The notes beneath the pieces are model-generated. The model made no database searches, had not been told where the DNA came from, and saw nothing but the letters and a program-made list of their open reading frames with translations. From Octopus vulgaris (Eukaryota), in NCBI GenBank assembly GCA_951406725.2, contig OX597817.1, positions 133,362,001-133,426,000 on the forward strand: a DNA stretch of 64,000 nucleotides. Direction: 5' to 3'. Positions 3,996-57,013 of this stretch are shown here, one piece after another (the first letter of the stretch is position 1; each line of letters begins with the position of its first letter). The position numbers were made by a program, and so were the translations under genes.

Positions 3996-4111
3996 TCCCT
4001 GAAGAAGCTTTTTTTACTAAATGCATTGTATTGAGAACTATTTAATTATTTAATTAATTAACTTATTAAAATAGATATACTCTTAGTAATTAAGCAGAAA
4101 CATGTGCTGGA
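3996..4111 (+). ncRNA. Degenerate hammerhead-ribozyme-like motif with long stem II
   Basis: TCC-CTGAAGA-A-GCTT..ACTAA.....TTAGT..AAGC-A-GAAA-CATG-TG-CT-GGA. Core boxes and palindromic stem III are present, but the cleavage triplet and stem I are damaged. Confidence 0.4.
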
Positions 4112-4343
4112 AAATTATTTATTTATATGGATAAATAAATAAAGGATTATTACATCTGTTTCTATTGTCTACCTTATTACATTTTCTCCGAATCTGCTAC
4201 ATTAAGTACTTTAACTGGATTTAATACCATGTGTGGTCAGAACCAAATTTCAGACTGAACTGGTATCTACCTGGAATTATCTCCCTACTTCGTTATATCA
4301 ATATATATGTATAAATATATGTGTTTGTGTGTATGTGTGTGTA

Positions 4344-5636
4344 TTAGGTCATTCTATAAATAATGTGCTTTTTTTTTCAATTGCATGAACCAAAAGTCAG
4401 AGGGGGATGGGATAAACTACTTGCATCAACTTGCTGTAAGAGCAGGTAGTAATTTTACCTTGTCCTTATTCTTAGTGCAAGTTTTCAAGAGTGCAGTTCG
4501 ATTTTAACAGTTATTTTTTCAAAGCAATAATGGCACTGACAAAGGAGCATATTCGGCATATTTTGCTTCTTTATGAGTTCAATAAAGAGAACAACGCAAT
4601 GGAAAATGCAAGGAATATTAATGCAGTATATGGGGATCAGACAATAAGAATAAGCTGGTGTTAATGGTGGTTCCAGATATTCCAAGCTAGAAACTGCAGC
4701 CTAGAAGATGAGCCTCGTCCTGAAAGATCTGTAGAGCTTGATAGGGACATCCTCCAAAACCTGGTGGAACAAAATCTCATTGTAACTGTTGTGGAACTAG
4801 CAGAGAAACTTGGATTTGGTCATTCAACCATTCATCGACACCTGCATGCCATCAGAAAAGTCAGTAAATTGGGTCAATGTGTTTCTCACAAACTTTCCAA
4901 GTCTAATCACCTGCAGAGAATGAATGTGTGCTCTTCTTTGCTGTCACATCTCATGAATGAGCGGTTTTTAGACTGAATAGTGACTGGTGGTGAGAACTGG
5001 ATTCTCTATAAAAATGTCAAGCGCTGAAGACAGTGAGTAGGGAAAGGAGAAACACCAGCACTCCAGGCTAAAGAAGGTCTTCACCCACGTAAGATTTTGT
5101 TATCTGTTTGGAGGGATATGAAAGGTTTAGTCCACTTTGAACTTTTAAACCCAAACCAAATGATAACAAAAGAGATCTACTGGAAGCAGCTCGAGCGGCT
5201 TAAGCCAGCACTGGAAGGAAAAAGGACCATTTTTGGTTTCATGATGAAAAGTTTTCTTCCATCAAGATAATGCTTGGCCACATACAGCGAGGATGATATT
5301 CCAAAGGCTGGAGCAGTTTGAATGGGAAACGATGCCCCACCCACCATATTTGCGAGACATTGCCCCATCTAATTATCATTTATTCCAGTCTTCAAAATCC
5401 TTTGCATGGAAAAACTATGAATTCTGTAGACAAGGTCAGAACAGTAGTGGAGGAGTACTTTTCATCCCAGACAAGTGAATTTTGGAAGAGGGGCTTTGCA
5501 AGTCTACCAGATAGATGGAAGAACATTCTAGAAAATGAAGGAGAGTATGCTTTAGATTAAAACAGAACTTTGTTTATCGTAATTTTGAAAAATAAATGAC
5601 GTATTAAAAAATGTCATTATTTATGGGATGACCCAA
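4344..5636 (+). mobile_element. mariner (DD34D-type) DNA transposon, full length ~1.3 kb, transposase pseudogene ~4530-5560
   Basis: TA at both ends; TIRs TTAGGTCATTCTATAAATAATG / CATTATTTATGGGATGACCCAA; motifs IVTGGENW and HPPYLRDIAPSNYHLF (cf. HPPYSPDLAPSDYHLF); stops and frameshifts. Confidence 0.93.
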
Positions 5637-5666
5637 TATGTGTGTGTGTATGTATCTGTGTTGTTG

Positions 5667-5724
<58 letters not shown>

Positions 5725-5728
5725 TATT

Positions 5729-6210
5729 TTATTGTCTTTGCGCAGCTCCTAAAGCTGGATATGTACTATAGTGTCAGCTGTTCACCCCTTATTTTTCGAG
5801 CACCTTCTGGAGTATTTGAGCAGTTCCAAGCAATGCTGTTTTCTGCAAGTGCTCCACTCTTATTGGTGCCTCTATTATGTACTTCTCAAGATTTTTACTC
5901 ACTGTTCCCAGGGCTCTGACAATTATTGGTACTACTACTACCTTTTTCAGTGACCACAACTGCTTAGCCACCCAAGCTAACCTGTTATATTTATTTGCTT
6001 TTCTTTCTTCCTTATCGCATACCTTGTTGTCAGCTGGGCATACTATATCTATGATCCAGCATCGTTTGCTTTCCTTCTCAATTAACACTGTCTGGTTTCC
6101 TATTCTCTATTTCATGGTTGCACTGAATCATAAAATCCCATAGGATCTTTGCATTATCATTTTCGATGATGCCTTCAGGTTTATGTTCGTACCACTTTTT
6201 TGCTCTGTCA
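5729..6210 (-). mobile_element. R4/Dong-like non-LTR retrotransposon 3' end (restriction-like endonuclease domain) embedded in (TAA)n
   Basis: KWYEHKPE..ILWDFMIQCNHEIENRKPD / LIEKESKRCWIIDIVCP..KEERKANKY..VVPIIVRALG..LQKTALLGTAQIL is the PD-(D/E)xK RLE C-terminus. (TTA)n tracts flank both sides. Confidence 0.88.
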
Positions 6211-6267
<57 letters not shown>

Positions 6268-6279
6268 GTTATTAAAATT

Positions 6280-6460
6280 GGTGAGTTGGAAGAATAATTA
6301 CAGCTTTGGGCAAAATGCTTACCGTTATTTATTCTGACACTACATTCAACTTTACCTTCACCCTTTTGAGGTTGATTAAATAAGTACCTGTTGAGCACAG
6401 GGGAAGTGGGTGCACTGTTATCAACGAATCCCATTTCTTTTAAATTATTGGCCTTTTGAA
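6280..6460 (+). mobile_element. SINE family 2 (MetaSINE-like central domain), diverged
   Basis: CTTTACCTTCACCCTTTTGAGGTTGATTAAATAAGTACCTGTTGAGCAC matches the conserved body of the copies at 27620, 30443 and 57096. Confidence 0.6.
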
Positions 6461-6461
6461 A

Positions 6462-6520
<59 letters not shown>

Positions 6521-9500
6521 GCCTGACTAAACCCTTTATAAAGACATAGATACATCTCATTACATTCTATGTTTACATGTTGTTAACATTAATATTGTAT
6601 CTCATTCTTTTGGGATCAATAATGTATCATCTATAAAATACCTGAAACAATTCAATTGCTACATCCTTCTCCAATAATTTAGTGATCTTGCCAATATAAG
6701 GAAAAGCTTCATTGAAAGCTGTATCTTTAATGATATCAATTTTACCAACCTCTACCACCAGAAAAAATTATGAGCATTGTTCCTTGCCTCTGTACCAATT
6801 AAAAAAAATTGCCCCATAATGTTTTTCATTCACCAGATCTTTTATGGTGAATATTTTATATAACAAAAACTGAATAAATTCTTTTAAGTTGCTGAGTAAA
6901 AGCATTTTATGAGAGCCATCTCAATGATTTGTTAACTATCATCATTGTTTAACAACCATTTTCCTTGCTGGCATGAGTTAGACACAACACTTAAGCAACT
7001 CTCTCAAAAAGGGATATGCCCAATCTCTAATAATCCTTAAAGTAACATCGCTGGCTCAACAAAGTTAACTCTTCATTATGATAACTTGACTTCAACTTTA
7101 GGAGTAATATATATTCTACATCATGGTACATAAATGTGAAATTTTGCACTTTAATTATGCCCTCAAGCATTTTGTGTTGCATGTTCCCACCAAATAAGTA
7201 ATCACTCTTCTATTAGACAAAACTTTTCAGCTACTAAGCCAGCTGTGTGAAGCTATGTACTTTCAGTGTTTCTTACGCAACAGCCTTTGTTTCAGTGTAC
7301 CTGCTGTTTCTGTCTTATTCCTCTCATAGATCTACTTGATTCTCCTGTTTTTAATCTTTTCTTCTCAATTCTCTATAGCTCTATCTTTTAGTCTTTGTAC
7401 CAAACATTTTTGCTCAGAAACCTGCAGATATTGTATAATTCAAAACTTCGCTTGAAGTAATAAATCACCAATTAAAATTTACAAAAAACCTACTTAATAA
7501 TTCCAAACTCATTCTAGAAAAAAGAACCAGAATTATTGCACTCCTCTAATTAGAAAATACAATGAAAAAAATTGATTTCTCTTTTAGTAATTTTGATATA
7601 AAATTCTGCTGAAATTAATTTTTCTTGGAATAATTGGGACCATTTTTCTCCTTTCAAATAAACATTCATTCCTCTCTATAATAATTTTGGTACTTATCTT
7701 CCTTTATTTTAAAACTTCACCTTCCAAACTGAAAAATGAAAAGCTTTTACAAACTTGAGATTTAGTTTAGAGTGAGATCTTAGAAATCTTCAAAATTATT
7801 ACAATCTTAAAATATATTTCAAATTACATCGTGCAGGATTTTCTTAATCAAGAATCAGTCCTGTGATAAATCTAATGTTAGGACAATATTAAAACTAGGT
7901 CTCCAATGTGATATATGAAACTAATATGATGATTTCTCATTTTCTAAAGCATCTTGCTATCTAACAAATATTGCCAGCCTGAATAGAGAAATCTAAAGTC
8001 TACTTCAAAATTTATGTTAAAATGGCTAATTTTAACTAATTTACATGTAGCTTTTCTATAATTTATAACAAACACTTTAAGATATGATCTCCTCCTCTTG
8101 CACATTATTATATTTGGTCGAGTCATAACGGAGCTACATTTGGCAGGCTGTAATTCTAAAGTAAATTATTACTACAACAATTGTTTCCAAAGTCATGCAT
8201 AGTTTCTTCCTTGAAAATTTATAATTTTTTAATTTGTTTTTTTTAAATTTTGGATGCTTGTGCTCTTTTTCCATGCTTAAAAGTGGTAAAATCTTAAAGA
8301 AAACATTTATTATCATTATAGTGAAACTATCGGTGAAACCTATCGTGAAAATATTCTCCTCAGCAAGTGAACAATACTTTTAATTTAAATTATTGTGTAT
8401 GGATTTTAGTAAAAAATTCAGTTTAATTTACATAAAATAGTGTTTTCTTTTATGTTTGTCAGTGAATTTATGTTTGTCTTTGGTTATAAATCTGTGTGTA
8501 TGTGTGTGTGCACCAAGAGTGAAACCTGGAAGTCAATAAAAAATTAGTGGGGTTTTTTTTCACACAACAAACATATTTCCATTGAGAATTCTGCTAAGTG
8601 ATAAAATATGAAAAGTAAAGTGAGATGAAAAAAGGTTTGAATTAATAGTAATAAAAAAAATTATGGAACCGGTGTAATTCCCTTATGTCCTGTAGGTTTG
8701 GTGAACATGCTAATGTGTGAGTTTACAGAAAAACACTGGAGGATGTTGTTTACCTGCGGGCCGTTCATTGTTCTCAGTTTGTCTTATGGTGAACTAAACA
8801 ATGAATTGAATATGAAGCAATTATTGGAAACTCTTAAGAAATTCTAATGTTTGAATTTTCTGTTTTAATTGATATCATTAGTTTTCTTGCTTAAACTGAA
8901 AGTAGTGCTTTATCATGATATAAATGATGACCATAGCACTTTAAGAATGATAATAAAAGATGTATTATAAATCAAAATAATGTACAGAAAGTGATTTATT
9001 TTTAGCTAAGGTAAATAAATTGTCTTGTAAATGCAGAAGGCAAACAAGTGGGAAATGTGATGAGAAATAAATAAACAAATGATATAGGTAAACAGCATAA
9101 AAAATAACTTTTATAAATAAATACATTTCATAAAATAAATAAAGGTACACAAAACATAGGTATGTTGAAATATAAAAGTGATTGAATTAATATATAACAA
9201 AAGCTAGAAGCAAAAGAAAATATATAGGGAATTTATAGCATGAACAAATAAGCAACTTCAGTCGTCACATCTTTTAACTAGACAATGAAATAGATAAGTT
9301 AAATACATATATGTGAACATTTTGTTTCTAAAATAACATAAAAAATTATATGTTGGATAGATTAATGATGACTTTCAAACATTTCTTTCTAATAAATACA
9401 TTAAAATGATTATGACACTTAGTCTCTTTAGCATTTCACAGAAAGCAATAGAAAGAATCAAATACAGGAAATCAATTGTCTAAAACAATGATTTGTGGAC

Positions 9501-9707: not shown

Positions 9708-9742
<35 letters not shown>

Positions 9743-13705: not shown

Positions 13706-15012
13706 ATCATCATCGTCATCATCATCGTTTAATGTCCGCTTTCCATGCTAGCATGGGTTGGGCAATTTAACTGAGGACTGCCGAACCAGATGGCTGCACC
13801 AGGTTCCAATCTGATCTGGCAGAGTTTCTACAGCTGGATGCCCTTCCTAATGCCAACCACTCCAATAGTGTAGTGGGTGCTTTTACATGCCACCGGCAGA
13901 AGGGCCAGTCTGGCAGTACTGGCAACAGCCACACTCAAATGTTTTGTTCACGTGCCACCGGCACAAGTGCCAGTAAGGCGACGCTGGTAACAATCATGCT
14001 CCAACGGTGTTTTTCACGTGCCACCGGCATGGAAGCCAGACAGCTGCTCTGGCAGTGATCCTGCTCAGATGGATCTGTTAGTGCTCCACTGGCACAGGTG
14101 CTAGTCATCGAATTTGGTTCAATTTCGATTTCATTTGCCCCAACAGGTCTTCGCAAACAGAGTTTAGTGTCCAATGAAGGAAAGGTATGCATAAGTGGGC
14201 TGGTTACGTCCCTGGCATAGGCCATGAGATTATGGTTTCATTTGGCTTGCCTGGTCTTCTCATGAACAGCATATTTCCAAAGGTCTCGGTCATTAGTCAT
14301 TGCATCGGTGAGGCCTAATGTTCGAAGGTCATGCTTCACCACCTCGTCCCAGGTCTTCCAGGGTCTACCTCTTCCCCAGGTTCCCTCAACCACTAGGGTG
14401 TGGCACTTTTTGACATAGCTATCTTTATCCATTTTCGCCACATGACCATACTAGTGCAGTCATCTCTCTTGCACACCACATCTAATGCTTCTTAGGTCCA
14501 ACTTTTCTCTCAAGGTACTTACACTCTGTCGAGTATGCACACTGACATTACACATCCAGCAGAGCATACTGGCTTCATTCTTTGCGAGCTTATGCATGTC
14601 ATCAGCAGTCACAGCCCATCTTTCACAGCCATGCTACATGGCTGTTCGTACACATGCATCATACAATCTGCCTTTTACTCTGAGTGAGAGGCCCTTTGTC
14701 ACCAGCAGAGGTAAGAGCTGTTTGAACTTTGCCCAGGCTATTCTTATTCTAACGGTTACACTTTTAGCACCACCCCCACTACTGACTTGGTCACCTAGGT
14801 AACGGAAGCTATCAACTACTTCTAGTATTTCTCCCCGGAATGTAGCAGAAGTTGTTCTCTGCACATTTGCAGTGTTTATTGCTCCTGAGCATCTGCCACA
14901 TACAAAAACTGTCTTCCCAGTTAGCCTTCCTTTGATATTGCTGCACCTCTTATGTGTCCATAGTTTTCACTGGGTACATCTTATAGAGTTTCTACCTATA
15001 CCTTTTCTACAC
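13706..15012 (-). mobile_element. RTE LINE, 5'-truncated
   Basis: LEVVDSFRYLGDQV, GRLYDACVRTAM, GRGRPWKTWDEVV; colinear with 1684-3150; (GAT)n tail. Confidence 0.93.
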
Positions 15013-16890
15013 CTTTGTCATAAAAAATAATTTCACCTGCACATCAAAAATTTACTCTATGTCATAAGACTACATAGGGCAAACGAACCTTACCCTCAGA
15101 GAAAGGATGACAGTTCACCACCAACAACTGAGGGACCCCACCACAAGACAGATACCACTTAGTGGACACTTAGACCTCTGTGCACACAATAAGTCCCCCA
15201 AATTCTTAGTTTCCCCACTATACCAATGCTCGAACAAAACCACAGACCAAACACGAATAAATAGGGAAAATAATCTTATTCAAAAATACAGACCACAACT
15301 AAACATACTCTAACATGCCCCAGGCACACATCCAAAACAAACACATACAGATATACAAAATCACGCACACACAAAAACAATGCCAACCTCCGACGCAAAT
15401 ACACTTGCACAAACACAATATCCTCACACTAGAACACAAACCCTCACACATCCCAGGAAAAAAGCACATACACATATACACTTGCAATAAGATTTTAGCA
15501 TCCATAACCAACACTTTCACACATATATACACATGTGAACGCGGACATGCACACACCTACACACACCACCCCGAAATTACAAATCACATTCACACAAACA
15601 CAACCACACACACACACAGATACACACACACACACTCACATTCAAAAGGAAAAAACACACATACACGCACATTACAACCACAACAAACATTCACAAACAT
15701 ACATACACACAGGCATGCACACACACAATGACACACACCTCCCCGACAAATACAAGACACATAAACGCACCCACACAAACACTCCTACACGCATACACAC
15801 ACATTGCACAAACAATACAAACAAAACAGATCACTCACAAATGCAACACACACACACACCCGGAAACTACAGAACTACATAAACCATACCCACACATATA
15901 CACACACACACACACCCAAACACATACTCAGTACCAACACACACACACCACCCAGATAAACCCAACACACATGGACACACATACAAACAAACACATACAC
16001 ACACTAGCGCACTGCAACACACTAACAAACATTAATCACACACACAGCACCATGACAAATACCAATCATGCACATACATACACTCAGACACACAACACCA
16101 AGACAATCATACACACGGTTGACAAACGGGCACACATACACACACCATCCTACCAAATTTTACAAACACACACAGACACATCTATTTACACCACAATAAA
16201 CCTTGGGACCAATCAAAAACGGCCCACACACACATGTATATATATATACACACACAAAGATACACACACTCGAACCATTCTGACCTCTAAAGACCAATCC
16301 CCCAAATCATTGATGCTTGAAGGAGAGACAAAAAAGTTCTTTTCAGTTCCACATTACTCTTCCTTCCCCCCACCCAAACACACCTACACTGTCCCTTGAA
16401 ATAAAAAATAGTCTTTTACAAGAACATGGTGAACCAGGTCAGTTTAAGCTACCACTACTAAAATGTGAACTTTTTTGAACTTACAATATTCTGTGTGTAT
16501 ATATATACAGATACAATACCAATATTCCACTGAACTTTTTAATAATTCCTTCTGGAAACTATCTTTAACATTTTCTTGAGAATGTATATATATGTTGTAA
16601 TCTTTTGTGCCCAATATTTTAATGAACTTGCTAAACTATTTTATATTTTCCCAAGATTTTCCCTTGCAAGGTGTTCTTAACATGTTCTTATTATCAAGGA
16701 ATGTATATGTATATTGTAATATTTTGTGACAACCAGTAACTAACACAACCAAGCTTTTACATGTTACTTTTGACAATCTTTTTCTAAAAAAGTGAAACCG
16801 GTAAAGTAAATAAACATTTTTTTAAATTGCATTTTCAAACCATCTTTCATATATAATTACACTCGTGCAGTACCTTACAACTCTACTTTG
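15013..16890 (+). mobile_element. Penelope-like element 3' remnant (GIY-YIG C-terminus 15013-15313, ~1 kb CA-rich UTR, hammerhead motif)
   Basis: FTCTSK.LLYVI..LRERMTVHHQQLRDPTTRQIPLSGHLDLC..RENNLIQKYRPQLN* is homologous to the EN of 56260-56700 (HVHRQQIWNTNVRQIPLNEH..FIKMFKPVLN). Confidence 0.8.
16764..16809 (+). ncRNA. Minimal type I hammerhead ribozyme, core mutated
   Basis: TTACTT-TTGACAA-T-CTTTTT-CTA-AAAAAG-T-GAAA-CCGG-TA-AAGTAA. Stems I and II and palindromic stem III pair perfectly; the core CUGANGA carries two substitutions. Confidence 0.65.
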
Positions 16891-18239: not shown

Positions 18240-18560
18240 AAGAGAGAGAAATTCTTTTGGCGAAGTTTGCCTGAGAGTCATGAAATGTTTTTTTAAAATG
18301 TTTAAATTGTGCATATATTCACCTGATGAAAATGTTTTTATGCATGTAATAACTCTATTCATCAATAAAAAAGACATGTCCAAAACAGCTGTAGTGAGTG
18401 AACCATTATCCATCTGTTGTTATTTGTTTATTATTCACCCAAATTGGAACCTGTATTTAGTGTTCTTCTAATTTTATTTTGTATACGATAGCAATTTCAT
18501 CACCCCGTCCTTGGTACATTACTATTTAAGGACCTGACTGGAATCCTGAACTTTCATATA

Positions 18561-21277: not shown

Positions 21278-21865
21278 TCACTGTAAAACAGCACAATAAA
21301 CAATATTCTTGGTTTTACCATTTGGTGTGAGTACGAAGAGATTGTTGCCATTTCCAGTTCTGGAATAACTAACATAGAGCTGACCATGGGAAAAGCACTG
21401 CTGCATGAGGTGAAGTCCAACAATATTCAGTGATAGTCCTTGACCCTTGTTAATTGACATTGCAAAATTAACTTTCACTGGAAATTGAGGTCTCTTGAAT
21501 TCAAAGGGCATGGAATTCTTGGAATAAACACATATTTTCCCTTTTCTTGTCCATTGAAGATTGTTGCTTCAAAAAGATGTGGATGTATTTGCCTGACAAT
21601 CAGTCATGTTCCATTGCACAGCTTTGGCAGATCAAGATTTCTAACAAGTATGATTGGAATTCCTTTCTTCAATGTCAATTTGTGAGAAGGTATTCCAGGA
21701 GGATCCAAAGAGTTAAGAAACTCAGTAGGATAATTCACAGTCTCATTGGAGTCTACAACAGTATCAATTGAGAAATAGCTTTTTTCCTTAATATTAATTT
21801 ATTGCGTAAGTTTCCAATTGACAACCTGGACAGTTTCATTCTTTAGTGCAAGTATGACTCTTTCA
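21278..21865 (-). mobile_element. Helitron PIF1-like helicase C-terminal fragment
   Basis: [83 protein letters not shown]. Confidence 0.92.
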
Positions 21866-22719: not shown

Positions 22720-23310
22720 ATTTTCCCTTGGGGCTGGCCAGATTGGAGCAATATCGAGTATAACCAACCGAAATTGCAAGGATAATCTGGAACTCGACTG
22801 AGGAAAGAAAACTCCGAATGATCCGTCCTTGTTTTCCTTGTATAATTTGTCTGGATATTTTGTTTTCCCTTTTTTTGTTTCACCTAACTGTCTGGATGTT
22901 TTGTGTTCTTGTCTCATTTTTGTATTTTATATTTATATATAAGAATTTTTTGCATAATAAGATAAAAATCTACGGCTGTGTAGATATTAGACCATTTATA
23001 AATAGAAGGTCTTACAGCTATTTCTAGGATATTTATTAATAATATCCCTTCATCAGAGACAGTGTGAAAAACAGCTGTAAGACCTATCTATAAATGCTCT
23101 AATATCTACACAGCTTTGGTTTTTTATTTTATTACGCAAAAAATTCTTATATACACTCACTGACATAGAACCAACGTTGAACCCTTTATTCACAATATTA
23201 CCGAATCTGGAACTTAACTGTTGTCTGTCTATAGCACTTATTCAGCATTACCTGACACCTTTGGGTCTCAATGACACCATTATCTCTTATAACCTCAACT
23301 TCTCGCTATA
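22720..23310. mobile_element. Penelope-type pLTR remnant with fold-back (inverted) arrangement
   Basis: Imperfect inverted arms ~22934-23019 and ~23073-23153 enclose a hammerhead motif; embedded in (TA)n. PLE origin is inferred, as no coding part is visible. Confidence 0.6.
23009..23060 (-). ncRNA. Minimal type I hammerhead ribozyme, intact core
   Basis: Minus strand: GTCT-CTGATGA-A-GGGATATT-ATTAATA-AATATCCT-A-GAAA-TAGCTG-TA-AGAC. Stem I GTCT/AGAC, 8-bp stem II, near-palindromic stem III, GUA cleavage triplet. Confidence 0.8.
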
Positions 23311-33628: not shown

Positions 33629-34287
33629 CTGCATAGAACAGATTGGGAAGCAATTAGACTCGATCTTATAGCTTACTAACAGATCAATTATCCACTCTTC
33701 CTTTGTCATCAAAGCAACTAGTCAAAAGTTTATGTACATAGTCCGCAACACATGTTCCCATTCATCAGCACAAACAGATACAGGTTCCAAAAAGGGACAG
33801 AAAAGCCTCATCAGGAAAATCAAATGTTAAAACAAATATATTGATCAACTAAATTATTACCACCAACAGAACCCACAAAAGCAACATGAACACTTGAGTA
33901 GCAAGAATGTCATCTACAAACCTTTATGAAAATTTACATCATTCAAATAACCACAAAGGAGGATTGGTTCATTAAAAAAAAAATACTAACCAAAAGTATT
34001 TTAATCATTTGCCAATAAAAGTAACATCACTGTTTCACCCATTGATCTACTGAAAGATAACAGCATTTTTCTTTAATGACATAAAAGAAATAGAAGAGAT
34101 ACTGCAGAAACACGACTGCTTAGTTTAATGATTCCACTGAAGTTGACTTAGGCAGTATCAATGAAAACAGCAACCAACATAGCATCTCTGATGTAACATT
34201 TGCTGAAAGGTAATACTCACCCCTACTTAAATGTGGATGTTCTATTACAACAGTTTCTCATATTGTCTTTTGGTGCAAAATGTACTG

Positions 34288-34960
34288 TGGCACCAATGCT
34301 TGTCCTGACTCTGTTTTTTTTTTATGTATTGCTGGTGGGGAGATGAGTCACTGCTATTTCTAACAGTTGAACATCCATCATCAACAAGACCAAAGAAGGT
34401 TGAAGTCATGTGATTTAGTAGCCTTAGTACTGGAGAGGGCAGGTATTTATCTCCCTGCTAGCAATATAAGCAAGCATGCATTTTTCTTGAAAAGCCAATA
34501 TGGGAGTTTCTTTCATGATATCTACCACAGTAAAGTTTATTCTAACAGAATGTCCATACATAAGGGCAATAAATATTACCTCTCCGTATTGATACTGCCT
34601 CTGACACTAATGTATAATTTTTAACAAGCTTACTGGCACCAGTGATACCAGTGACTGTTCTGGCACTGTTTTTCTACATATTGCTGGTGGGAAAATGAGT
34701 CACACATCCATTATTGATGAGACCAAGGAAGGTTGAAATCATGTGATCTGGTGGATTTGGTGGTGGGAGATCCCAGGGAGTTACCTCCCTGCTAGCAATA
34801 TAAACAAGCATACATTTTGTATGAAAAGCCAATTTGAGAGTTTCTATTATAGCCACTGCTGCAGTAAATTTTATTCTAACAGAAAATCCACATTTAAGTG
34901 GAGATAAATGTTACCTCTAGGTATTAGTACTGCCTCTGTCACTAATATATATTGTATAAC
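34288..34960 (+). repeat. Diverged tandem duplication, two ~335-bp units
   Basis: Shared blocks TATTGCTGGTGGG, CTCCCTGCTAGCAATATAA, GAAAAGCCAAT, TTATTCTAACAGAA and TACTGCCTCTG occur in both 34288-34625 and 34635-34960. Confidence 0.9.
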
Positions 34961-35199
34961 ATTTGGCATCCTTGACATTATAGCATCAATAAATATCAGG
35001 TGAAGAGAAAAGTTTTGTTTTTGGTTTTCACTGATGATTTTTGGCAACTTAATTACTTTAATGCAACTTGTCCAATCATTGCTCAATTGTTTATTCTCTA
35101 TTTTCATATATAACATCATCATCATTATCATCATTGAACACTTGTTCTCCATGCTAGCATGGTAAGCTTTAATTGTTTATTCTCTATTTTACAGGTTTG

Positions 35200-36444: not shown

Positions 36445-39400
36445 CATTTATCTCTCACAGGAGACATGTCAATGTGTAATGCATACATGAGGTAAGATAG
36501 AGAGGAGCTTCAGCTAGGGTCCTCACAGGCAAGGCACATAAATACAAAATCTTCTGGCAAGGTAACACAGATGGAATGGGGGGTGTAGGCATACTCCTTG
36601 CGGAGAAATGGGTAGATAAGGTCATAGAGGTTGTCAGAGTATGTGACAGTGTGCTTAGGCTTAGGCTGGTCCTGCAGAACAGCACAGCTACAATTATCTC
36701 TGCCTACACCCAACAAGCAGGCCTACCAAATGATGAGAAGGACCATTTTTATGAAACCCTTCTACAGGCTACCTCAAAGACGAGTGGTAATGACCTCATC
36801 TTTGCAGCTGCAGATTTTAATGGGCATATTGGGTGGCAATCCGGTATCTTCACTGGTGTACATGGGGGCCATGGTATTGGTTCCAGAAATGACAAGGGAA
36901 CTAGGCTACTGGAGTTCTGTGATGCATGTAACCTTTTAATCTACAACACTAATTTCAGGAAACCAGACAGCCACCTGATAACCTATCAATCAGGTGACTC
37001 TGCTAGCCAGATTGATTTCATCCTCACCACACAGCAGGACACAGGGTTGCTCTTAGATACAAAGACCCTCCTGAATGGAGAATGGACCCTTCAGCATAGG
37101 CTAGTTATTAGTGACTTTAGGCTCGAAGCCAGAAGGATACCAAGAAGTAGACCAATCCAAAAAAGAAGGAGGCTGGGTGGCAGGTATACATAACCACGGG
37201 CAAAGCAGAAAAGAAGTTTGCCAATGTCCAGCGACGTGAGAACCAAAGAACTGAGGTATTTTGGATTACAAGACAGTGTGTGAGAGAAAATTGTGATGTC
37301 ACAGGAGAGAAATGTGACCGCATGGATGATGGTGCACTTGCTTTTAATCATTCGGAAAAGAAAATGGCTTGAATAAGGCATTTTGAAAAACTGCTGAACA
37401 TGGACAATGAATGGAAGGAGATCCTGCTAAAACTTGACCCAGTAGAAGGACCAGCTATCCAAATAGACAGCTCCCTTGTAGATAAAGCAAATTAAGGGTA
37501 TGAAGCCAGGAAAAGCCCCCGGCCCATCAGAAATCACTGCTAGGATGCTTAAAATATCTGGTGGTGTGGGCTCTGGCCTAGTCACCTGCATTGTAAACCA
37601 GGTAATTCATGATGGAGTCATACCCAATGACTGGCGTAGCAGCACCATAGTCAACTGCTACAAGGGTAAAGGTGATGCTCCAGATAGAAATAACTACAGG
37701 GGTATCAAACTGCTGGATCAGGTGATGAAGGTCCCGGAGAGGGTTATAGGGTGAGAGTCTGCTTAGATGAAATGCAGTTCGGTTATGTGCTGGGTAGAAG
37801 CACCACTGATACCATATTCCTGATTCGACAACTGCAGGAGAAATATCTAGCTAAAGATAAACCCTTATATTTAGCTTTTGTGGACTTGGATAAAGCCTTT
37901 GACAGGATCCCCTGATCCCTTATCTGGTGGGCAATGCAGAAACTGGGGATTGATAAATGGTTAATACGGGCTGTACATGCCCTATACAGAGAGGCCCTTA
38001 GTAAGGTTAGGATTGGAAATTAGTATAGTGAAGAATTCTGGGTAGAAGTAGGGGTCCACCAAGGTTCAGCCCTCAGCCCCTTTTATTTATCATAGTCCTC
38101 CAGGCACTAACAGAGGAATTCAAGCTGGGTTGCCCCTGGGAGCTCCTCTATGCTGATGACCTGGCCCTCGTAGCAGAATCACTACCAGAACTAGAAAAAG
38201 ACATTTCGGGTGTGGAAGCAATGTTTAGAATCAAAAGGCCTTAGAATCAATGTAGCAAAGACCAAAGTTCTAGTAAGTAAGAAGGCGAACACATCACATA
38301 CCCACTCAGGTAGGTGGCCCTGCTCGATGTGTAGACCTGGTGTAGGTAGAAACTCCATAAGATGTACCTAGTGTAAGCTATGGACACATCAAAGAAAGAT
38401 TAACCAAGAAGATAGCTTCTGTGTGTGGCAGATGCACAGGAGCAATAAACACCACAGATGCTCAGAAAACAGATTCCATCACACTCCAGGGGAAGAAACT
38501 AGAGGTAGTTGATACCTTCCACTACCTAGGTGACCAAGTTAATAGTTGGGGTGGATGCTCAGAGTGTGTTTTCCACTAGAATAAGAATAGCCTGGGCAAA
38601 CTTTAGAAAGCTTCTACCTCTACTGGTGACAAAGAGCCTCTCGCTCAGAGTGAAAGGTAGATTGTGCGAAGCATATGTGCAAACTGCTATGCTTCACGGT
38701 AGTGAAACATGGGCAGTGACTGCGGAGGACATGCGAAGGCTTGAAAGAAATGAAGCTAGCATGATCCGCTGGATGTGTAATGTCAGTGTGCACACACAAC
38801 AGAGTGTAAGCGCCCTGAGAGAAAAGTTGGACATAAGAAGCAAAGGATGTGGCATGCAAGAGAGGCGTTTGCACTGGTATGGTCATGTACTATGGATGGA
38901 TGAGGAGGGATGTGTGAAGAAGCGCCACTCCCAAACAGTTGAAGGAATCCAGAGTAGATGTAGATGTAGGAAGACATGGGATGAGGTGGTCAAGCATGAC
39001 CCTTGAACGTTGGGCCTCACAGAGGCAATGACAAAAGACCAAGACCTCTGGAGATATGCTGTGACTGCGAAGACCCAGCAAATAAAGTGAGTTCACAGCT
39101 TTATCCTACACCAGTTTCACATAACCAGCCCCAGCCCATTCAAAAATACCTTGGATCGTAGGGCAACCTGCTGTACTTGAGGAGACCTATTGTGTCAAGT
39201 ACATCAACATCAAAATGAAAATCAAATGGAAATTGTAGCTGTGATACCCGTGCCAGTGGCACATAAAAAGCACCATCCGGATGTAGCCGATGCCAGTGCC
39301 GCATGTAAAAAGCACCCACTACACTCACAGAGTGGGAGGGCATCCAGCAGTAGAAACACTTCCAGATCAGATTGAGTCTGGTGCAGCCTTCTGGCTCACC

Positions 39401-41585: not shown

Positions 41586-41671
41586 ATTCGTCTGAAGATA
41601 ACGTTTTTTTATAATGAGATAATGCACCCATTAATCAATTAAAAAATTTGTTGGAAACAGTTGTAATGAAT
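41586..41671 (+). ncRNA. Type I hammerhead ribozyme, intact core, extended stem II
   Basis: ATTCGT-CTGAAGA-TAAC..TTTTTT....AAAAAA..GTTG-GAAA-CAGTTG-TA-ATGAAT. 6-bp stem I with one G-U; stem III CAG(C>T)TG; GUA triplet. Confidence 0.75.
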
Positions 41672-41702
41672 TGATACCTATCCATCATTTGTTATATATA
41701 TC

Positions 41703-42555
41703 AAGTGAAGATTAGCAATGGGTGTAATGATGAATTCAGGGTACAAGTAGGGTTTCATCAAGGATCAGTCTCCAGCCTTCTCATGTTCATCATAATCCAC
41801 CAGGCAATAACAGAGGAATTTAAGTTGGGGTGCTCCCAGGAGCTCCTCTACACTGATAACTTGGCTTTTATAGCCAAATCACCACCAGAACTAGAGAAGA
41901 AATATCAGGTGTGGAAGCAAGGTCTAGAATCAAAGGGCCATAGATTTAATCTTGTAAAAACCAAAGTCTTAGTAAGTAGGAAAGCAGACAAATCACAAAC
42001 CCCTTCAGGTATATGAACCTGCTCAATCTGTAGAAAAGGCATAGAAGCTCCATAAGAAGTAAACAGTGTAAGCTATGGACACATAAAAGGTGCTATGGAC
42101 AGATCAGAGGAAGGTTAAGAGGGAAAATAGTTTTTGTGTGTGGAAGGCACACAGATACAATAAATACTAAAAATGTACAGTAAATAGACTCCATCAAATG
42201 CCAGGTGGGAAAAGATAGAAGTAGTTGATAGCTTCTGTTATCTAGGTGGCCAAGTCAGTAGTGGAGATGTATGTTCTGAGAGCATAGCTGCTAGAATAAG
42301 AAGAGGCTGGGCAAAGTTCAGAGAGCTCCTACTGCTGTTGGTAACTAAGGGCCTCTCCCTCAGAGTGGAAGGTAGATTGTATGATGCCTGTGTGTGAACA
42401 GCCATGCTACATGACTGAAACATGGGCTGTGACTGCTGAGGACATGCAAAGGCTTGAAAGAAGTGAAGCTAGTATGCTTTGCTGGTTATGCAGCGACAGA
42501 GTGTAAACATCTTGAGAAAAAAGTTGGGTATAAGAGGCATCAGATGTGGTGTGCA
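41703..42555 (+). mobile_element. Internal RTE RT fragment
   Basis: EFRVQVGFHQGSV, LLYTDNLAF, KTKVLV, KQCKLWTHKRC, FCYLGG, GRLYDACV. Confidence 0.92.
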
Positions 42556-47858: not shown

Positions 47859-50800
47859 TCACATCAGCTGGGTAACTGTTCTCTACAACAGTGCATGGCT
47901 TTAGCACTTTGTCTCATTGAGCAGAATTTGGCCAAATGTGCTTACACTGCGTTGCTGTTTTTATTAGAATTTTCCACCACTATCCTTTATTTTACACTGT
48001 AGTTCTGTTATGCATTTGGCATGATTGTATGTCTGTATGCATGCATATATGTTATTTTTCATTTAATTTAATTTAAATTCTTCTTCTATGGAAGAAGCTG
48101 GGTTCTAACAAAGAAATAATGCTTCATTGCTGGAATTCTTAATTTAATTGTCACTGAGACATTTATTAACATAACTGAGTGCAGATATAAATGTGAATTT
48201 ATGATTTAAGTAAAAAAACTGAAAATTTCAAAGTAGTTCTCTGCAAACATTCTTTTCATCAACGACTTTGAAAAAAATATTGTGCAAATACTGTACAAAG
48301 TATATAACCACTGTGATTGCACATTTTTTTTTATTCTAACCAAAACTTTATCAAATCTGTTATATTTGCACTTGATATAAGTTTTGATAAGAATGTTCCA
48401 CATGTATTCCTTATGTTGATATGTGTGGATATCTTCTCTATATTTAACCAAGGACAATCTTCCCTCAGAATGGCAGTGTATATATTTTCAATAACAATGC
48501 TATATTGCAACTTAATGACATCTTGGGGGAGCTGCTGACAACATTTGCAATATTTTCCACACATTTATAACATAATCAACACTTTTGTTTGTGTCTGGGG
48601 CTTTAAGGCCTTCACTGTCTAATTTGGAATGTTGTAGATTTCTCTTGTGCTTAGCTTGGAAAAGCATAGCCTTTGAAATGTAACAGTCATAAATCTAAGA
48701 GACGCTTTGATTTTCTGTTGTCCTGTTAATGTTAAATTCATTCCTAAGTTTATTGGAAGGCATATTCATGCCTAACCTTGACAGTATTTCCAGAGTGTTT
48801 CTCGTCTAGCTGTTGAGGTACAGTAGTTCATCAATTCTGGGGTAGCATGGAAAGCCATCAGGAAGAGTACTCCTTGAGAAGTTCAATACTGATCCATAGA
48901 GCTCTCTTCACTTTTGTGTACTTGATTGTTGTATTTGTTTTGGTTACTGTCGTCAGCAGATGCTGACTGAAGGATACTGTACAACATGCAGAGGCTGTTG
49001 GGCTTGGTCTTAAGCTTCTTACTTTTTTTATAACTATTTCTGTGGAAGCTTCAAATTAGTTTTAGGATCTTGATTTTTGCTTTTCTTGTGACGCCACATT
49101 TTATGTAAGAGTCCGTGTGTGTGTGTTGTGTGTGTGTGTGTGTGTGTGTGTGTAAACAGAGAGAGAGAGAGAGAGAGAGAGTGAAAGAAATTAAAAGAGA
49201 ATGAATGTATTCAATCAGTTACACATTTATACTTACATACAAATACATGAATTCTAATACAATTATGCAAGTGTTAAACTGTTTGTATGTAAAGAGAAAA
49301 ATATAATATTCACTAAATCATTGATAAGCAATTGAAAAATATAGGATCAGTTTGAAAATTATGTTGAACCTCAAAAGGATCAATACAATTAATGGGCAGC
49401 CTAGTAAATTAGTAGGCCTCTGAGAACAAGGGCATATTATTAATCCTGTGCCACGGAAGTTTTGCCTTGTCCCCTATTGAAGCTTTTCTAAATTGAAAAG
49501 AAATATACTTCTGGAAACTTACTTCAGTTCAAGTTTTATTTAAAGAGCAAAAATTGTAATTAGAAGGAATGTACAAGAAGAAAGTGCTAAAGTGAAATAA
49601 TGTTTAAATATACAGAACTGTATATATCTTAAGCATAGTGAGAGAGAGAAAATTTGTGGAGAGTAAGGAGTAAGAAATATTGATGGTGTAGTTGTAAAGA
49701 GAAAAGAAAAAAAATGATGAAACTCAGCAATGGGTTAAGGATTGAAATTTGTTGGTTAGGAATTATGAAAAAGGTAACTAAACAAGAACTACAACTGTAG
49801 TGGATGTTAATATGTACACTAAATCTGTTGCTAAGTTCTATGAAAATTATTATCTTGAAACAGTACTTTTTACCTCTAGTAATTCTTCAGTAAGATAGAC
49901 TTTATTGATTTTTTTAATATATTTCTTGCTATGATTCATCAGAAATATATTTTACACTATCCATCATAGATCTGCATCTAAGGACTCCAAACACTGATCT
50001 CTTATATTGTAAATTACCTACCAGACTTCTCAATAATGTCAGCAGAGGCCTCTCTGACCCATGTACTATTAACTCTAGTGTGCTTCAGGATTTAGGAATG
50101 TCCCTCATATTCTGCCCTCTCTACAGCAATGACCTAATTAATGTTCTGAGCCACTTTATTAAAAACCATTAAAAATTTTACAAAACTTGTTAGCTAGAAC
50201 AGTTTTCAGTCCCAGTAACTGACATTACACATTATTGTGAACAGCCAGAAAAGTAAAGAATTTACATTGTGGGAGATGGGGAAGGGTTCATAGTCAAGAA
50301 TTTGTAAAGTTTGTGAAGGATTTAGTTGACTTGGAAGAACAGTAAGATCACTGGTATTGAAAATAAAGAGTGCAAGAGACAAAAACCAAATCCTGGGGAT
50401 CAAAGAGGTCTACACTTACATGCTGAAACATATACATGATGCCAATGAGGAAAGCTTTACCATGTAAAGTTAAATTCCCTCAGATACAGCATACTGTCTT
50501 AATAAATTAAGGTTGGGGAATTTCAGATTTTCTCTGTCTTGAAGCTATTAATTGATTCACTCACTATTTTGAAATTGATGCTACACTTTGTTAATTTAGC
50601 TGATGGTATGTATTGTTTAATGTTCAACTCACAGAAAATGATCAGTGATTTGCAGCTGGTTGACTTCATCAAATGCTTATGTGTTCCCAATATCATGCTC
50701 TTTCTCTTTCATAAATATATATGTTCACAATTATTTCTTTGATAATTTGGATTTCAAACATATTTGACTGATAGGTGGCTATTTGTGATCTGACTTTGTG

Positions 50801-51518: not shown

Positions 51519-52163
51519 TAGTTAGTATGCAAATTGGCAGAGATCCAACCATGTATCTGAGTTGAAGTACCATAGAGACCAGAAAGGGGTTGGTATTGTG
51601 TAGTATGTAGATGGGTGGTGGGTGTTCGTGATAAGATGGTTCCCAAATGAGTTGAGGAGAGGAGCATAGATGCGTGTTATTCAATATAAGTAATAATTGT
51701 GTTATTATCCTTTAACTACTCTTTATTACAGAGTTTTTAAATAGTGGTTATAGAGGGGTTGAACATGGACAGATCAAATGTCATTCTTCATTACACAGGT
51801 GAAGTGGATAGGAGAAAAGGTGAGTGATAGGTGAAAGGATAATGATAGGGACTTAACAGGAGCATAATGGGAGTATAGATCCAATATAGATATATTTGAC
51901 TTTTCAATTTCCTTGCTGGAGTTTCATACCTACTTCACAATATGTAAGAATGTATATACATTGCTAAGAATATATATACATGACAATTATTACTTATCTT
52001 GAATAATGTTTATCTATGCTCCTTTCTTTAATTCATTTGGGAACTACCTTACCATGACTACCCACTACCCATCTATATACAAGACAATGCCAGCCTCTTT
52101 CTGGCCTCTAGGATACTCCAAGTCAGCTATATGGTTGTTCTTCTGCCAGTTGTATGTTAACTA
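51519..52163. repeat. Diverged inverted repeat, arms 51519-51700 and 51983-52163
   Basis: Reverse complement of the right arm aligns with the left (TGGCAG..CAACCAT..CCAGAAAG..TAGATGGGT..TTCCCAAATGA..GGAGCATAGAT..ATAAGTAATAATTGT). Confidence 0.85.
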
Positions 52164-53000: not shown

Positions 53001-53328
53001 CAACTCCCTGAAAAAATCCTCCAATACAAAGTCACATTTACAACTAATATCATTCAAGGTTGACCATGTTGTTCAGTTATGTACAAGTCTAAACATACAA
53101 CATACAAATAAACAATTTTACTAATCCTCTCATGTCAGAAAATATTCACTGTGATGCCTGTCAGCATGATATAAAATTAAATATAATTTGCAAAATGGTC
53201 TCAATGTAGTGATAAGTGAAAACAATTTGGTCTTTTATATAACACAAAATAACAAGTCTTTAATTATACTTGTCACTCTGTCCCTATATATTGCTCTCTC
53301 TCTCTAGCTCTCTCTCTCTCTCTCTCTT

Positions 53329-53413
<85 letters not shown>

Positions 53414-53479
53414 TTTTTAAAAATTTATTTATCTAGTTTCAGCTCACAAGCTGTGGCCATGCTGGGGCACCGCCATTTG

Positions 53480-54478
53480 GTGTTGCTACATGATTTTACT
53501 TCACGAATGCTTTTTAGCAATTGCCATTTGGTGCATGAGAGAGTTCGATGCAGCTGCCCTCATCTGCACCTCCTGCCGTGAAGTTGGTTCATCTGGGATA
53601 CCTGACAAGAAGAGATCCAGTTTCATTTTAAAGACATCTGCGTCAACCCCATGCAGGTCTCTTAGGTTCTTCGGGAGGATATTGAAGAGCTGTGGGCATC
53701 GGAAGCCCAGGCTATCACAGTATCTTGTCCTACATCTTGATGGCAAATTTGGAGTCCTTGGCACTATGCAGTGGCGCCCAGTTCTGGCATTTGTGTAACT
53801 CTCAATGCCAAAGTTTGGGACAAGTCCTTCTAGGATCTTCCAGATGTATATTATGGCATATCTTTCTCGCCTACACTCTAAGGAATAGAGTCTCAATCTT
53901 TCCCAATAGCTTATATGCTGCACAGAGGCTATCTTCTTCGTGTAGCTTCGTTGGATCGCCTCAAGTTCTGTGATTAACTTGACACTGGATGGTGACCTTA
54001 GCTGAGAGCAATAGTCAAAGTGGCTTAGGACAAGTGTCCTCCAAAGGACCATCATGGTTTCCTGGTCTCTTGTTCTGAAGGTTCTAAGAATCCATCCGGT
54101 CAGCCGCCTACATTTCATTGCCAATTTAGCAACATGCACATGAAAGGTTGTATCATCACTCATGTAAATACCCAGGTCTCACACTGATTGTGCCTTTGGG
54201 ATTGCAGTCCCTCCAGGTCCAGTGTATTTATTGGGTATTGCATTTTGATTTGTGTGCTGACAGCATAGAGCTTGAAACTTTTCAGCATTGAACTGCATGC
54301 TATTCTTTTCAGCCCACTTGTATATTTTGTCCAGCTCACATTGCAGGTGCTTAATATCTTCAGGGTTCTGTATTGCCTGTGAAACTTTTGTATCATCTGC
54401 ATAACTTGTGATCATGGCTCTCTGCGTGGCTGAGGGCATGTCTGAGAGGGCCATTATGAACAGTAGTGGTCCCAAAAC
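53480..54478 (-). mobile_element. CR1/L2/Jockey-superfamily LINE, 5'-truncated RT C-terminus
   Basis: LGPLLFIMALSDMP, SYADDTK, WAEKNSMQFNAEKF, LSHFDYCSQL, LYSLECRRERYAIIYIWKIL, GFRCPQLFNILP. Confidence 0.92.
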
Positions 54479-54512
54479 ATAAATAAACAAATAGAGATAT
54501 ATATTATATATA

Positions 54513-55317
54513 CAGGGTGTTTGAGCAAAATTTGACTACTTTTATGTCCCCTTTCTTGTTTTAAGAATAGTTTGATGTATTGGTGAACAGTCAACAGCAT
54601 TGGATAGCATAAAGATTAAAGTCACAGTTGTGGAAAAGTTAGCTGACATGGAGGACTGGAAGTTATCTGAATATTAAAAATGTATTACTTGTATCATAAT
54701 GATTCACACCGGGTATCAAAACATTGACATCATGACTGCAGCTCAATGTTCTATGAACGCTGTAAAGCTACAATGGTGTCTATGAAGCAGGAGAGGGGAC
54801 ACAGCTGGTATTTGTGTCTTCAGTGAGGGTAACATGATTTTACCCCACATCTTTGAACAGGGCCTTAGGCTCAAATCAGATGATTATGTTAAGTTGCTGG
54901 AGTCTGGTCAATATTTAACTTGAGAGGGTTGCTGCTGGAAGGTCATGTATGTAACAGCAGGGTTCAGCTCCTTGCTATATCTCAGAAGTAGTTTTTGGAG
55001 AATTTTTATGACTTCCCCTGCAACCCTCCTAACTTCCCTAATTGCAATCCTATGGATTACTATGTGTGGGGTGCAGTTGAGAAAGACACCAACTGCTCTG
55101 CTTGAGAAAACCAAGGCCAAGCTGGCTGCCAAGATCAAGGTGTTCAAGATTCCAGAGCAGTCGGCTATGGTGGAAGCCAAGGGCATCTACCTTGATTATG
55201 CTACCAGTCATAATTTAGTTGATACATTTTGATTTTTTGAAATACTTTATTTTTGAATATGATATTGTATTTTCTTTTCCTTTTATGCAAACAGTCAAAT
55301 TTAGCCTACACAGTTTG
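54513..55317 (+). mobile_element. Tc1/mariner superfamily element, probably maT/DD37D-like, internally deleted
   Basis: TA-CAGGGTGTTTGAGCAAAATTTGACT ... AGTCAAATTTAGCCTACACAGTTTG-TA TIRs; PPNFPNCNPMDYYVWGAVE (cf. WPPNSPDxNPLDYxVW). Confidence 0.8.
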
Positions 55318-55431
55318 TATACATACATACATACATACATACATACATACATACATACATACATGCATACATGCATGCATGCATACATACATGCATGCAT
55401 GCATGCATACATACATGCATACATACATACA

Positions 55432-55467
<36 letters not shown>

Positions 55468-55474
55468 TATAGCA

Positions 55475-57013
55475 GTTGAATAAAGTTAAAACATAGACTG
55501 ATTTTCATGTTTTTTATTGCGGCATTTTCGTGAACTCAGTATTGGAATACTTAGAACAAAACCTAAATAAAAAAATTGAAGAGAACTACGACATGACCTT
55601 TAAAAGACATGTAGAGGACACATGGAAAAGATACCTCAAAGACTGCTTCCTAATTTGGACCAAATCCCAAGAAAATCTGGAAGAATTCAGCACCCTCCTC
55701 AACAATCTACACCCTAGTCTCAAATTCACAAGAGAAATGAGCAACTCACAATTACCATTTCTTAACAGAATGGTAATTAAAACAACACCATAATCACAAG
55801 TGATATTTATTAGAAAAGCACAGATGCAGACCAGTACTTAAATTTCAAATCATGCCACCCAACACATTAAATGCAACATCCTGTACTGTCTAGCCAGGAA
55901 AATTTGTACTATAGTAGATGGTCCAAATATAAGAACCACATGACTCATAAAATTCAAAGGATTTCTGCTCAAGCAAAAACACCCTCCCCTACTTATAGAA
56001 AATAACATACAACAAGCAAAAGAGATAACTATAGGACAACTTAGGGCAACATGAAAGAGACAAACCCATCAATGGAACACAATACCATTTTTAGTAACAC
56101 ACAATCCACATAACCAAAACATTTTGAACATCTTCAAAACAAATTTACCAATCATAAACAAAGTGAAAAATTTAAAAAAAAACAACTAATCAAACGCTTA
56201 TCCTAAGCAAAAGGCAACCACATAACCTAAAGAAACTATTAACAAAGGCAAAATTCAACATGAACAAACAGGCTAAAACATTCACAGTATACAAGCATAA
56301 TAATAACAGATGTGGAATATGTTACTACATGCATACTGGTAGATACATTAGAACAAAAAATGGACATATTTTCGCAAATGCAGATGTAAACTGCAAAAGC
56401 AGAAATTTGATCTATTGCATTAAATGCCTGAATCGCAAGGAACTATATATAGGCAAGACAGGGAATGCAGTATCAGAACACTCACATGTCCACAGACAAC
56501 AAATCTGGAATACTAATGTTCGCCAAATTCCATTGAACGAACATACAGAAACATGTGGTCAGAAAATGTTTCTAATTTTTCCTTTCCACAAACTACATGA
56601 CACAAGTGAGGTTGGAAGAAAGATGAAAGTAAAACGGTTTATAAAAATGTTCAAACCTGTTCTGAATGGAAATAACAACAATAATATAACAACCAGTTAA
56701 TGATGTGGATTAAAAAATATCTTTAACTTATGAATATAAACAAAGTACAGGATATCGGTATGTGATGATGTTTAAGCTGCATGCAGATTGGTCGAAACCG
56801 CATTCAAAAAATTCAGCTTGCTGGAGTGTTCTAAGAGGTATTACAGTTGACAAGAACTCAACTGTCAGTTAAATACATTTTGAAATCTGATGATTGCTAC
56901 CAAAGTATGAAAGCACTAACTGAACTTTATGAACATTACAAAATAATTTTTTAATGTTAAAATACCATAATAAGAAAATATGAAAACCATACCATGTTTT
57001 AACTTTATTCAAC
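55475..57013 (+). mobile_element. Penelope-like element, 5'-truncated, RT plus GIY-YIG pseudogene with inverted terminal pLTR fragment
   Basis: WKRYLKDCFLIW (decayed RYxDD), LNNLHPSLKFT, LPFL, YLNFKSCHP, CGIC, CKSRNLIYCIKC..LYIGKTG. 55475-55528 is the reverse complement of 56959-57013. Confidence 0.92.
56887..56923 (+). ncRNA. Hammerhead-like motif in PLE pLTR, stem I disrupted
   Basis: CTGATGA-T-TGCT-ACCAA-AGTA-T-GAAA-GCAC-TA-ACTGA. GCAC could be CpG-decayed GCGC. ACTGA could pair with TCAGT ~20 nt upstream rather than the adjacent bases. Confidence 0.5.

Follow-up and report, generated by a model that had tools for sequence, protein, structure and literature searches.

This 64,000-nt stretch of Octopus vulgaris DNA (GenBank assembly GCA_951406725.2, contig OX597817.1, positions 133,362,001 to 133,426,000 of the forward strand; hereafter the window) raises the question of how several minimal hammerhead ribozyme motifs with quite different stems came to lie within 53 kb. 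A preliminary description, made from the letters alone, had listed five such loci, ascribed them to Penelope-like retroelements, and proposed that unrelated lineages had seeded a putative intron with self-cleaving motifs of a possibly lineage-specific kind. We consider it very likely that the motifs are the separately inserted, 5'-truncated, decaying 3' ends of several Penelope-like families, probably inert, in the probable last intron of the gene for a Shal/Kv4 potassium channel. The core of the description, Penelope-type type I hammerheads with a palindromic stem III, from several families and within an intron, was supported, and the host gene was identified.

Hammerhead motifs in the window

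Seven insertions are present: the five loci, one further copy of the locus 4 family (the sister), and a tandem dimer at 34.3-35.0 kb. The sister and the two relics inside the dimer are three hammerhead relics that had been overlooked. Positions are counted from the first letter of the window.

3996 to 4111, plus strand: locus 1, hammerhead-like but damaged motif (core 3999-4005, stem II region of 91 nt, GAAA 4097-4100)
16764 to 16809, plus strand: locus 2, hammerhead with a U3-A8 core, U·U at the stem II base and a CCGG palindrome
18317 to 18399, plus strand: locus 4 sister; 6-bp stem I, perfect CAGCTG palindrome, G12 changed to A at a CpG-type site
22936 to 23153, minus strand: fold-back insertion of 218 nt, in which the 3' part recurs inverted, 5' of the locus 3 hammerhead
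23009 to 23060, minus strand: locus 3, complete motif with a 4-bp stem I, A·A at the stem II base and TAGCTG
34208 to 34961, plus strand: decayed tandem dimer, units 34292-34626 and 34647-34961 (73% identical)
41586 to 41671, plus strand: locus 4, complete motif with a 6-bp stem I, a 55-nt stem II region, U-G at the stem II base and CAGTTG
56884 to 56921, plus strand: locus 5 hammerhead (core at 56887), ~220 nt beyond an endonuclease, with U·U at the stem II base

The motifs are real and above chance, yet the five loci are not uniform. A CUGANGA-like core, stem II, GAAA, and a near-palindrome were found at all five, but the full order that had been claimed for each was not. The core CUGANGA with GAAA and UH is present at loci 3, 4, and 5, and in U3-A8 form at locus 2. 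Locus 1 departs from this arrangement through a broken cleavage site: in the register first proposed, stem I is absent and G occupies the cleavage position (G17), while a shifted register gives a 3-bp stem I (TCC/GGA), but C replaces U16.1. The sister of locus 4 departs in its core, through the change at G12. Locus 2 is structurally the best of the five, with stems I and II of 6 bp each and a perfect CCGG, its core being TTGACAA (U3, A8), not CUGANGA. Helix I measures 6, 4, and 6 bp at loci 2, 3, and 4, and 3 bp in the majority sequence of the locus 5 family, not in the window copy. A perfect helix III palindrome is found at locus 2, in the inverted arm of the locus 3 fold-back (which keeps CAGCTG), in the locus 4 sister, and in the locus 5 family majority. 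Loci 2, 4, and 5 terminate at or near TA runs; past locus 2, a (TA)n run begins near 16890.

Locus 3 is predicted to be locked by its own fold-back, the hairpin folding at -103.5 kcal/mol against -79.6 kcal/mol with the ribozyme enforced, and the predicted pairing probability of its stem I is ~0. Locus 4 and its sister are 70% identical, with stem II regions of 55 and 52 nt. Their stem I is paired in 12/12 cells with one two-sided change, which for two sequences only is not significant, and the pair at the stem II base differs between them (U-G in locus 4, A·C in the sister).

For locus 5, copies of the family could be read. Contigs of four sequencing runs matched 56480-57048 at 80% likeness in 2256, 2094, 2746, and 13 records, and the family is multicopy because thousands of contig records match this interval; the run with 13 records is guessed to be an RNA run and is uninformative on expression. 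In run X1, the majority letters were A at 56896 (99%), G at 56901 (88%), C at 56904 (87%), G at 56915 (78%), and T at 56920 (93%), giving a GCGC palindrome, three Watson-Crick pairs in stem II, and a 3-bp stem I. The window copy deviates from this majority at pairing positions: it keeps one adjacent stem I pair, and both stem I and the palindrome, paired in the family majority, are damaged. T56894 and T56908 do not figure among the 40 changes listed, and U·U would be the majority state of the family because each listed change attains roughly half the depth in one run or more; a minority variant may exist at this pair. The segment 56864-56870, considered as an upstream stem I partner of locus 5, was dropped after the family reads restored adjacent pairing.

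The excess over chance was measured against 60 local dinucleotide shuffles of the window, with descriptors composed post hoc, after the loci had been seen. An exact core with a stem II of at least 4 bp and a near-palindrome gave four matches against a shuffle mean of 0.13, and none of the 60 shuffles reached four; hence the hit rate was not equal to that of shuffled sequence, a check that the preliminary description had itself proposed. The full descriptor gave two matches (shuffle mean 0.03, 0/60 shuffles) and the loosest 41 (mean 28.5, 1/60 shuffles). By minimum-free-energy folding, none of the five loci was significantly better than shuffles (z -1.02 to +1.06).

A covariance model, R1, was trained on 14 motifs of related elements from other hosts, none from the window. 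In its ranking, locus 2 came first at 27.7 bits (E 2e-4), locus 5 was third with 20.1 bits, and a site at 34707, in the dimer, fourth with 19.4 bits. Its second place went to 49909-49949 on the minus strand (21 bits), which has an exact core, GAAA, and a palindrome, has no stem II, and was judged a chance match. Candidates at 3809, 16442 (minus), and 32203 (minus) were likewise rejected as probable chance, having two core mismatches or no stem II. The other search that had been suggested, with Rfam, found no hammerhead among the 150 matches listed of 197, at locus 3, or at the dimer; it is uninformative here, because Rfam also missed all 10 of the related loci with intact motifs.

Penelope-like elements and their relatives

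Protein remnants of two elements accompany the motifs.

14987 to 15310, plus strand: GIY-YIG endonuclease remnant, frameshifted, Penelope-like (best tblastn E 3e-27; Pfam GIY-YIG 24.7 bits, cut-off 22.6)
15310 to 16300, plus strand: A/C-rich low-complexity stretch between this endonuclease and locus 2, the link between the two being probable
55467 to 55528, minus strand: inverted copy of the locus 5 element's 3' tail at its 5' junction (63 nt, 82.5% identical)
55515 to 56670, plus strand: Neptune/Nematis-type Penelope-like element, 5'-truncated and frameshifted, of which the reverse transcriptase (RT) C-terminus, the cysteine linker, and GIY-YIG remain

The open reading frame (ORF) at 56176-56697 led to 15 relatives among 68 candidates, 37-55% identical and carrying RT and GIY-YIG domains. 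These relatives match the window at 55515-56670 and 14987-15310 and nowhere else, so the three GIY-YIG remnants of the preliminary description are reduced to two. No third remnant was found in the window with the 15 proteins, a profile, 131 ORFs of related loci, or Pfam on 24 of the 64 listed upstream open frames. Weak matches around 31350 and 31860, with E of 0.05 or worse, are without profile support and were set aside. Among viral contigs, no relative was found.

Locus 5 shows a full Penelope layout: an inverted tail, a truncated RT followed by the C-terminal GIY-YIG, a hammerhead on the sense strand 3' of that ORF, a tail, a (TA)n-type target, and an element end near 57021. The same placement of the hammerhead is probable at locus 2. 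In the 15 protein relatives of locus 5, a C-x4-CxxC linker (CX2-5CxxC) and CCHH are invariant and DKG is kept, and the window copy has lost one cysteine from each of the linker and CCHH motifs. By these sequence marks, the element appears to be of Neptune/Nematis type, not of the Hydra clade, which has DKT, no CCHH, and a CxCX5C linker (PMC8557442). With Neptune/Nematis-type elements it shares the RT, cysteine linker, GIY-YIG with CCHH, inverted 5' piece, tail, and TA-rich ends, and it differs in that the window copies are truncated and frameshifted. The two window endonucleases are 31% identical, and the elements of loci 2 and 5, as far as their proteins indicate, are different families within one protein group. 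The two typable lineages would therefore not be unrelated, as had been proposed; loci 1, 3, and 4 were not typable.

Profile scans for related elements gave 75 metagenome loci and one genome locus. Among the 38 in which the endonuclease end is present with at least 150 nt beyond it, 17 have a hammerhead motif 71-539 nt past the endonuclease, against 0/38 on the reverse strand and none in 100 shuffles. Stem covariation in the related motifs amounted to 50 two-sided changes against 16 when shuffled, the structure having been derived from these very sequences. Three of the 17 have the same U3-A8 core as locus 2, and a 45-nt stem II region is found in L012. A CAGCTG-type pattern was absent from all 76 related loci (0/76). 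In a tree of 24 rows, containing unnamed relatives only, the nearest relative of the locus 5 protein is L001 (86% ultrafast bootstrap), which shares both U·U and GCGC. Other U·U forms fall in a separate clade, and deep nodes are poorly supported.

Several side observations concern these relatives. Penelope hammerheads with a 2-bp stem II were noted at L004:51-89 and 3750-3788, L061:4304-4342, L017:1504-1542, L060:2350-2388 (minus), and L048:2459-2496 (minus). The two in L004 are identical and stand 3.7 kb apart, either side of the ORF. The Penelope-like element L076 (JABSON010000348.1), whose hammerhead has a U3-A8 core, comes from a bacterial metagenome-assembled genome and is probably host contamination.

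The base of stem II

The first pair of stem II was described as a recurrent oddity, and at loci 1 to 5 it does read A·A, U·U, A·A, U-G, and U·U, although the pair at locus 4, U-G, is a normal wobble. The published consensus (PMC4209133) has an extra base after A9 followed by G10.1-C11.1 in more than 80% of cases, a trait found at none of the five loci. The missing G10.1-C11.1 is a departure from a consensus tendency with published exceptions. Across the 17 related motifs, U·U fills the first stem II position in seven, A-U in four, G-C in three, G-U in two, and an extra base plus G-C in one; two duplicate pairs among them reduce U·U to 5/15 distinct motifs, and several come from similar contig sets. 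A·A was seen in 0/17.

In Fig. S3 of PMC4209133, where the PDF columns were not kept, U·U is the reading of a Hydra row, and one of 56 rows shows an extra A before GAAA ('AGAAA'). File S2 of PMC8557442 has U·U at the stem II base in 14/26 Hydra-clade rows, one family being listed twice and two rows being identical in sequence. U·C, C·A (PLE-X1_cBra), and a long stem II (PLE-X1_sMoe) also occur there. The axolotl hammerhead HHR_Amex2 (PMC7229834) has a U·U mismatch at the helix II base, and its monomer cleaves 22% in 1 h, the dimer better. The claimed novelty thus fails, since U·U at the stem II base is already published. Beyond this, Craig et al. 2021 (PMC8557442) was the only relevant literature result on octopus, and our search found nothing closer on the 10.1/11.1 pair or on antisense bias.

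The wider comparison places the octopus motifs within a known class. With those of Cervera and de la Pena 2014 (PMC4209133) they share the type I order, a short helix I, a palindromic helix III, a position 3' of a GIY-YIG ORF, mostly solo copies, the U3-A8 core variant, and high sequence variety in one genome. That paper reports short palindromic inserts in Penelope hammerheads, most motifs being solo relics of truncated elements with weak cleavage in vitro. They differ from its consensus in having U·U, A·A, or U-G at the first stem II position, palindromes of 4-6 nt rather than 2, and, in two families, stem II regions of 52-91 nt. With Hydra-clade hammerheads (PMC8557442, File S2) they have in common U·U at the stem II base, helix III inserts of 4-6 nt, and (TA)n targets, while Hydra-clade helix III usually has an odd-length loop and the proteins differ as described above. 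The same paper gives (TA)n targets, tails, and truncated copies in inverted orientation as typical of Penelope-like elements. The animal non-LTR (long terminal repeat) retrozymes of PMC7229834, HHR_Amex2 included, resemble the window in the U·U at the helix II base and in tandem units of 330-350 bp, like those of the dimer. They differ in that the five loci are solo and not in tandem, and the dimer is decayed, damaged in its cores, and known from DNA alone.

These loci add Octopus families to a hammerhead class known since 2014, and they show the first stem II pair switching among G-C, G-U, A-U, and U·U inside one Penelope protein group. Such switching matters for search descriptors because Rfam misses these motifs.

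Host gene, orientation and competing explanations

The setting of the motifs was established from a splice-site scan of the window, which gave 15 candidate exons, of which the best is listed here.

58796 to 58954, minus strand: coding exon of the Shal/Kv4 potassium channel host gene, assigned by protein identity

Its 53 residues are 100% identical to Shal/Kv4 proteins of Octopus sinensis and O. bimaculoides. It is the penultimate coding exon of Octopus Shal/Kv4, and the intron after it measures at least 58.8 kb. The remaining C-terminal coding part, the last coding exon, lies outside the window, and because of this positions 1-58795 are likely a single intron transcribed from the minus strand, probably the last of the gene. 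Relative to the host gene, locus 3 is the sole sense copy among the seven insertions, and the other six are antisense (one-sided p 0.0625).

We envisage the following origin. According to the literature, tandem motifs in the pseudo-LTRs of a source element would pair via the palindromic stem III, and the resulting double hammerhead would cleave the precursor RNA weakly, perhaps assisted by the element's own protein. Endonuclease-primed reverse transcription would then have left solo 3' ends at AT-rich sites, and point mutation, in part at CpG, would have damaged these copies. They would not cut host RNA, because a same-family partner is not nearby and their orientation is mostly antisense. We infer that the whole set is inert. 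The picture of an intron seeded with self-cleaving motifs is therefore not one we retain, given six antisense insertions and a seventh that is predicted to be hairpin-locked.

Several results weigh against this reading. Locus 2 sits 1.46 kb from its GIY-YIG remnant, and the motifs of the 17 relatives lie within 540 nt of theirs. Profile, ORF, and Pfam searches gave no protein remnant upstream of loci 1, 3, or 4 or of the locus 4 sister, and their Penelope origin is argued from motif type and layout because no such remnant was detectable. Model R1, which represents long stem II regions and 6-nt palindromes poorly, gave locus 3 only 9.9 bits (noise level) and locus 4 a partial 12.2 bits, and among its 25 window matches it missed locus 1. 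Locus 5 is the one locus whose family copies could be read. Finally, locus 2 looks structurally intact and might still cleave if transcribed.

The dimer bears on a different origin for part of the set. Preceded by a 43-nt inverted piece at 34208-34250, its units carry one hammerhead relic each, at 34373-34423 and 34706-34756, both with damaged cores, and by analogy the interval 34292-34961 resembles a decayed non-LTR retrozyme. As a side observation, the relic cores read TCAACAA and TTGATGA. A TCGACGA ancestor, an unusual core, is possible by CpG decay alone, and TTGACGA or TTGACAA fits with an equal number of changes.

Loci 1, 3, and 4, the sister, and the dimer may derive not from truncated autonomous elements but from hammerhead repeats that Penelope enzymes mobilize, either non-LTR retrozymes or families of solo pseudo-LTRs, which are themselves non-autonomous. 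We entertain this possibility tentatively, and it is compatible with the preferred explanation for loci 2 and 5. It would suit the lack of ORF remnants upstream of loci 1, 3, and 4 and the dimer units of 335-355 nt, each with a relic, which fall inside the 150-450 bp size class of PMC7229834, and a preprint (10.64898/2026.07.22.740005) derives retrozymes from Penelope pseudo-LTRs. However, extreme 5' truncation of ordinary elements looks alike (PMC4209133), and loci 1, 3, and 4 are not in tandem. That AT-rich DNA has produced at least one chance match among the five, with locus 1 the most plausible case, we find unlikely. Locus 1 has no valid cleavage site, scores z +1.06 against shuffles, and is missed by R1, and no locus of the five has a fold significantly better than that of shuffled sequence; against this stand the four exact-core matches where 0.13 were expected, and the stem I and flank (TCC / GGAAAAT) that locus 1, in its shifted register, shares with the relative L015.

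Slightly less probable again is a new, octopus-specific hammerhead variant defined by a non-Watson-Crick 10.1/11.1 pair and a long stem II. The apparent U·U majority in the locus 5 family, among the changes listed, speaks for it, as do the A·A at two loci (1 and 3), seen in none of the 17 related motifs, and the long stem II in both locus 4 copies (55 and 52 nt). The lineage-specific variant suggested by the preliminary description does not, however, accord with U·U in 7/17 related motifs (5/15 distinct), in 14/26 Hydra-clade rows (PMC8557442), and in HHR_Amex2 (PMC7229834), or with a locus 4 pair that is unlike in the sister copy. An N·A pair is also published, as C·A in PLE-X1_cBra (PMC8557442) and in the one 'AGAAA' row of 56 (PMC4209133), and a long stem II is unexceptional, being present in L012 (45 nt) and PLE-X1_sMoe. 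A·A at the stem II base is unproven as a trait. Adoption by the host, as a set that cleaves or regulates Kv4 pre-mRNA, we regard as very improbable: all motifs do lie within one probable intron of a neuronal channel gene, but six of the seven insertions are antisense, the sense one has a predicted stem I pairing of ~0, locus 5 is off its family majority at pairing positions, and the copies are kilobases apart with different stems.

The orientation bias itself could have a further cause. Of six long interspersed nuclear element (LINE)-like remnants in the window, two are antisense and four sense (Fisher p 0.086 against the hammerhead insertions), and the strand bias is a hint only. These remnants were taken from the ORF list and repeat pairs, three being confirmed by Pfam and two by repeat similarity, and the sixth we presume to be LINE-like from its motif. 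It is conceivable, though we doubt it, that RNA cleavage in vivo by octopus Penelope hammerheads, the A·A and U·U types included, is strong enough to purge sense-strand intronic insertions. This would explain six antisense copies against one sense copy silenced by its own fold-back, and LINE remnants that are mostly sense (4/6). An antisense bias would matter more if it were genome-wide and specific to intact ribozymes, because it would bear on whether minimal Penelope hammerheads are active in cells. For an anole element, PMC11167929 reports that the hammerhead cleaves only with the element's protein, that cleavage is not needed for insertion in vitro, and that no RNA-seq ends lie at the cut site.

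The window as a whole is AT-rich animal DNA loaded with microsatellites, which dominated whole-window repeat finding, and CpG is depleted to 0.26 of expectation. Remnants of LINE-type reverse transcriptase and endonuclease occur on both strands at 1867-3525, 14455-14966, 36501-39090, 41675-42417, 53501-54535, and 5789-6461. The A/C-rich stretch at 15310-16300 is a degenerate repeat of ~1 kb (A 0.46, C 0.35), and no motif-bearing related locus has such a gap. At 4665-4976 and 21278-21568 we noted a helix-turn-helix remnant like a DNA transposase and a helicase remnant, both Pfam matches being under the cut-off. An inverted repeat at 51532-52151, with 169-nt arms that are 79% complementary and 282 nt between them, resembles a miniature inverted-repeat transposable element.

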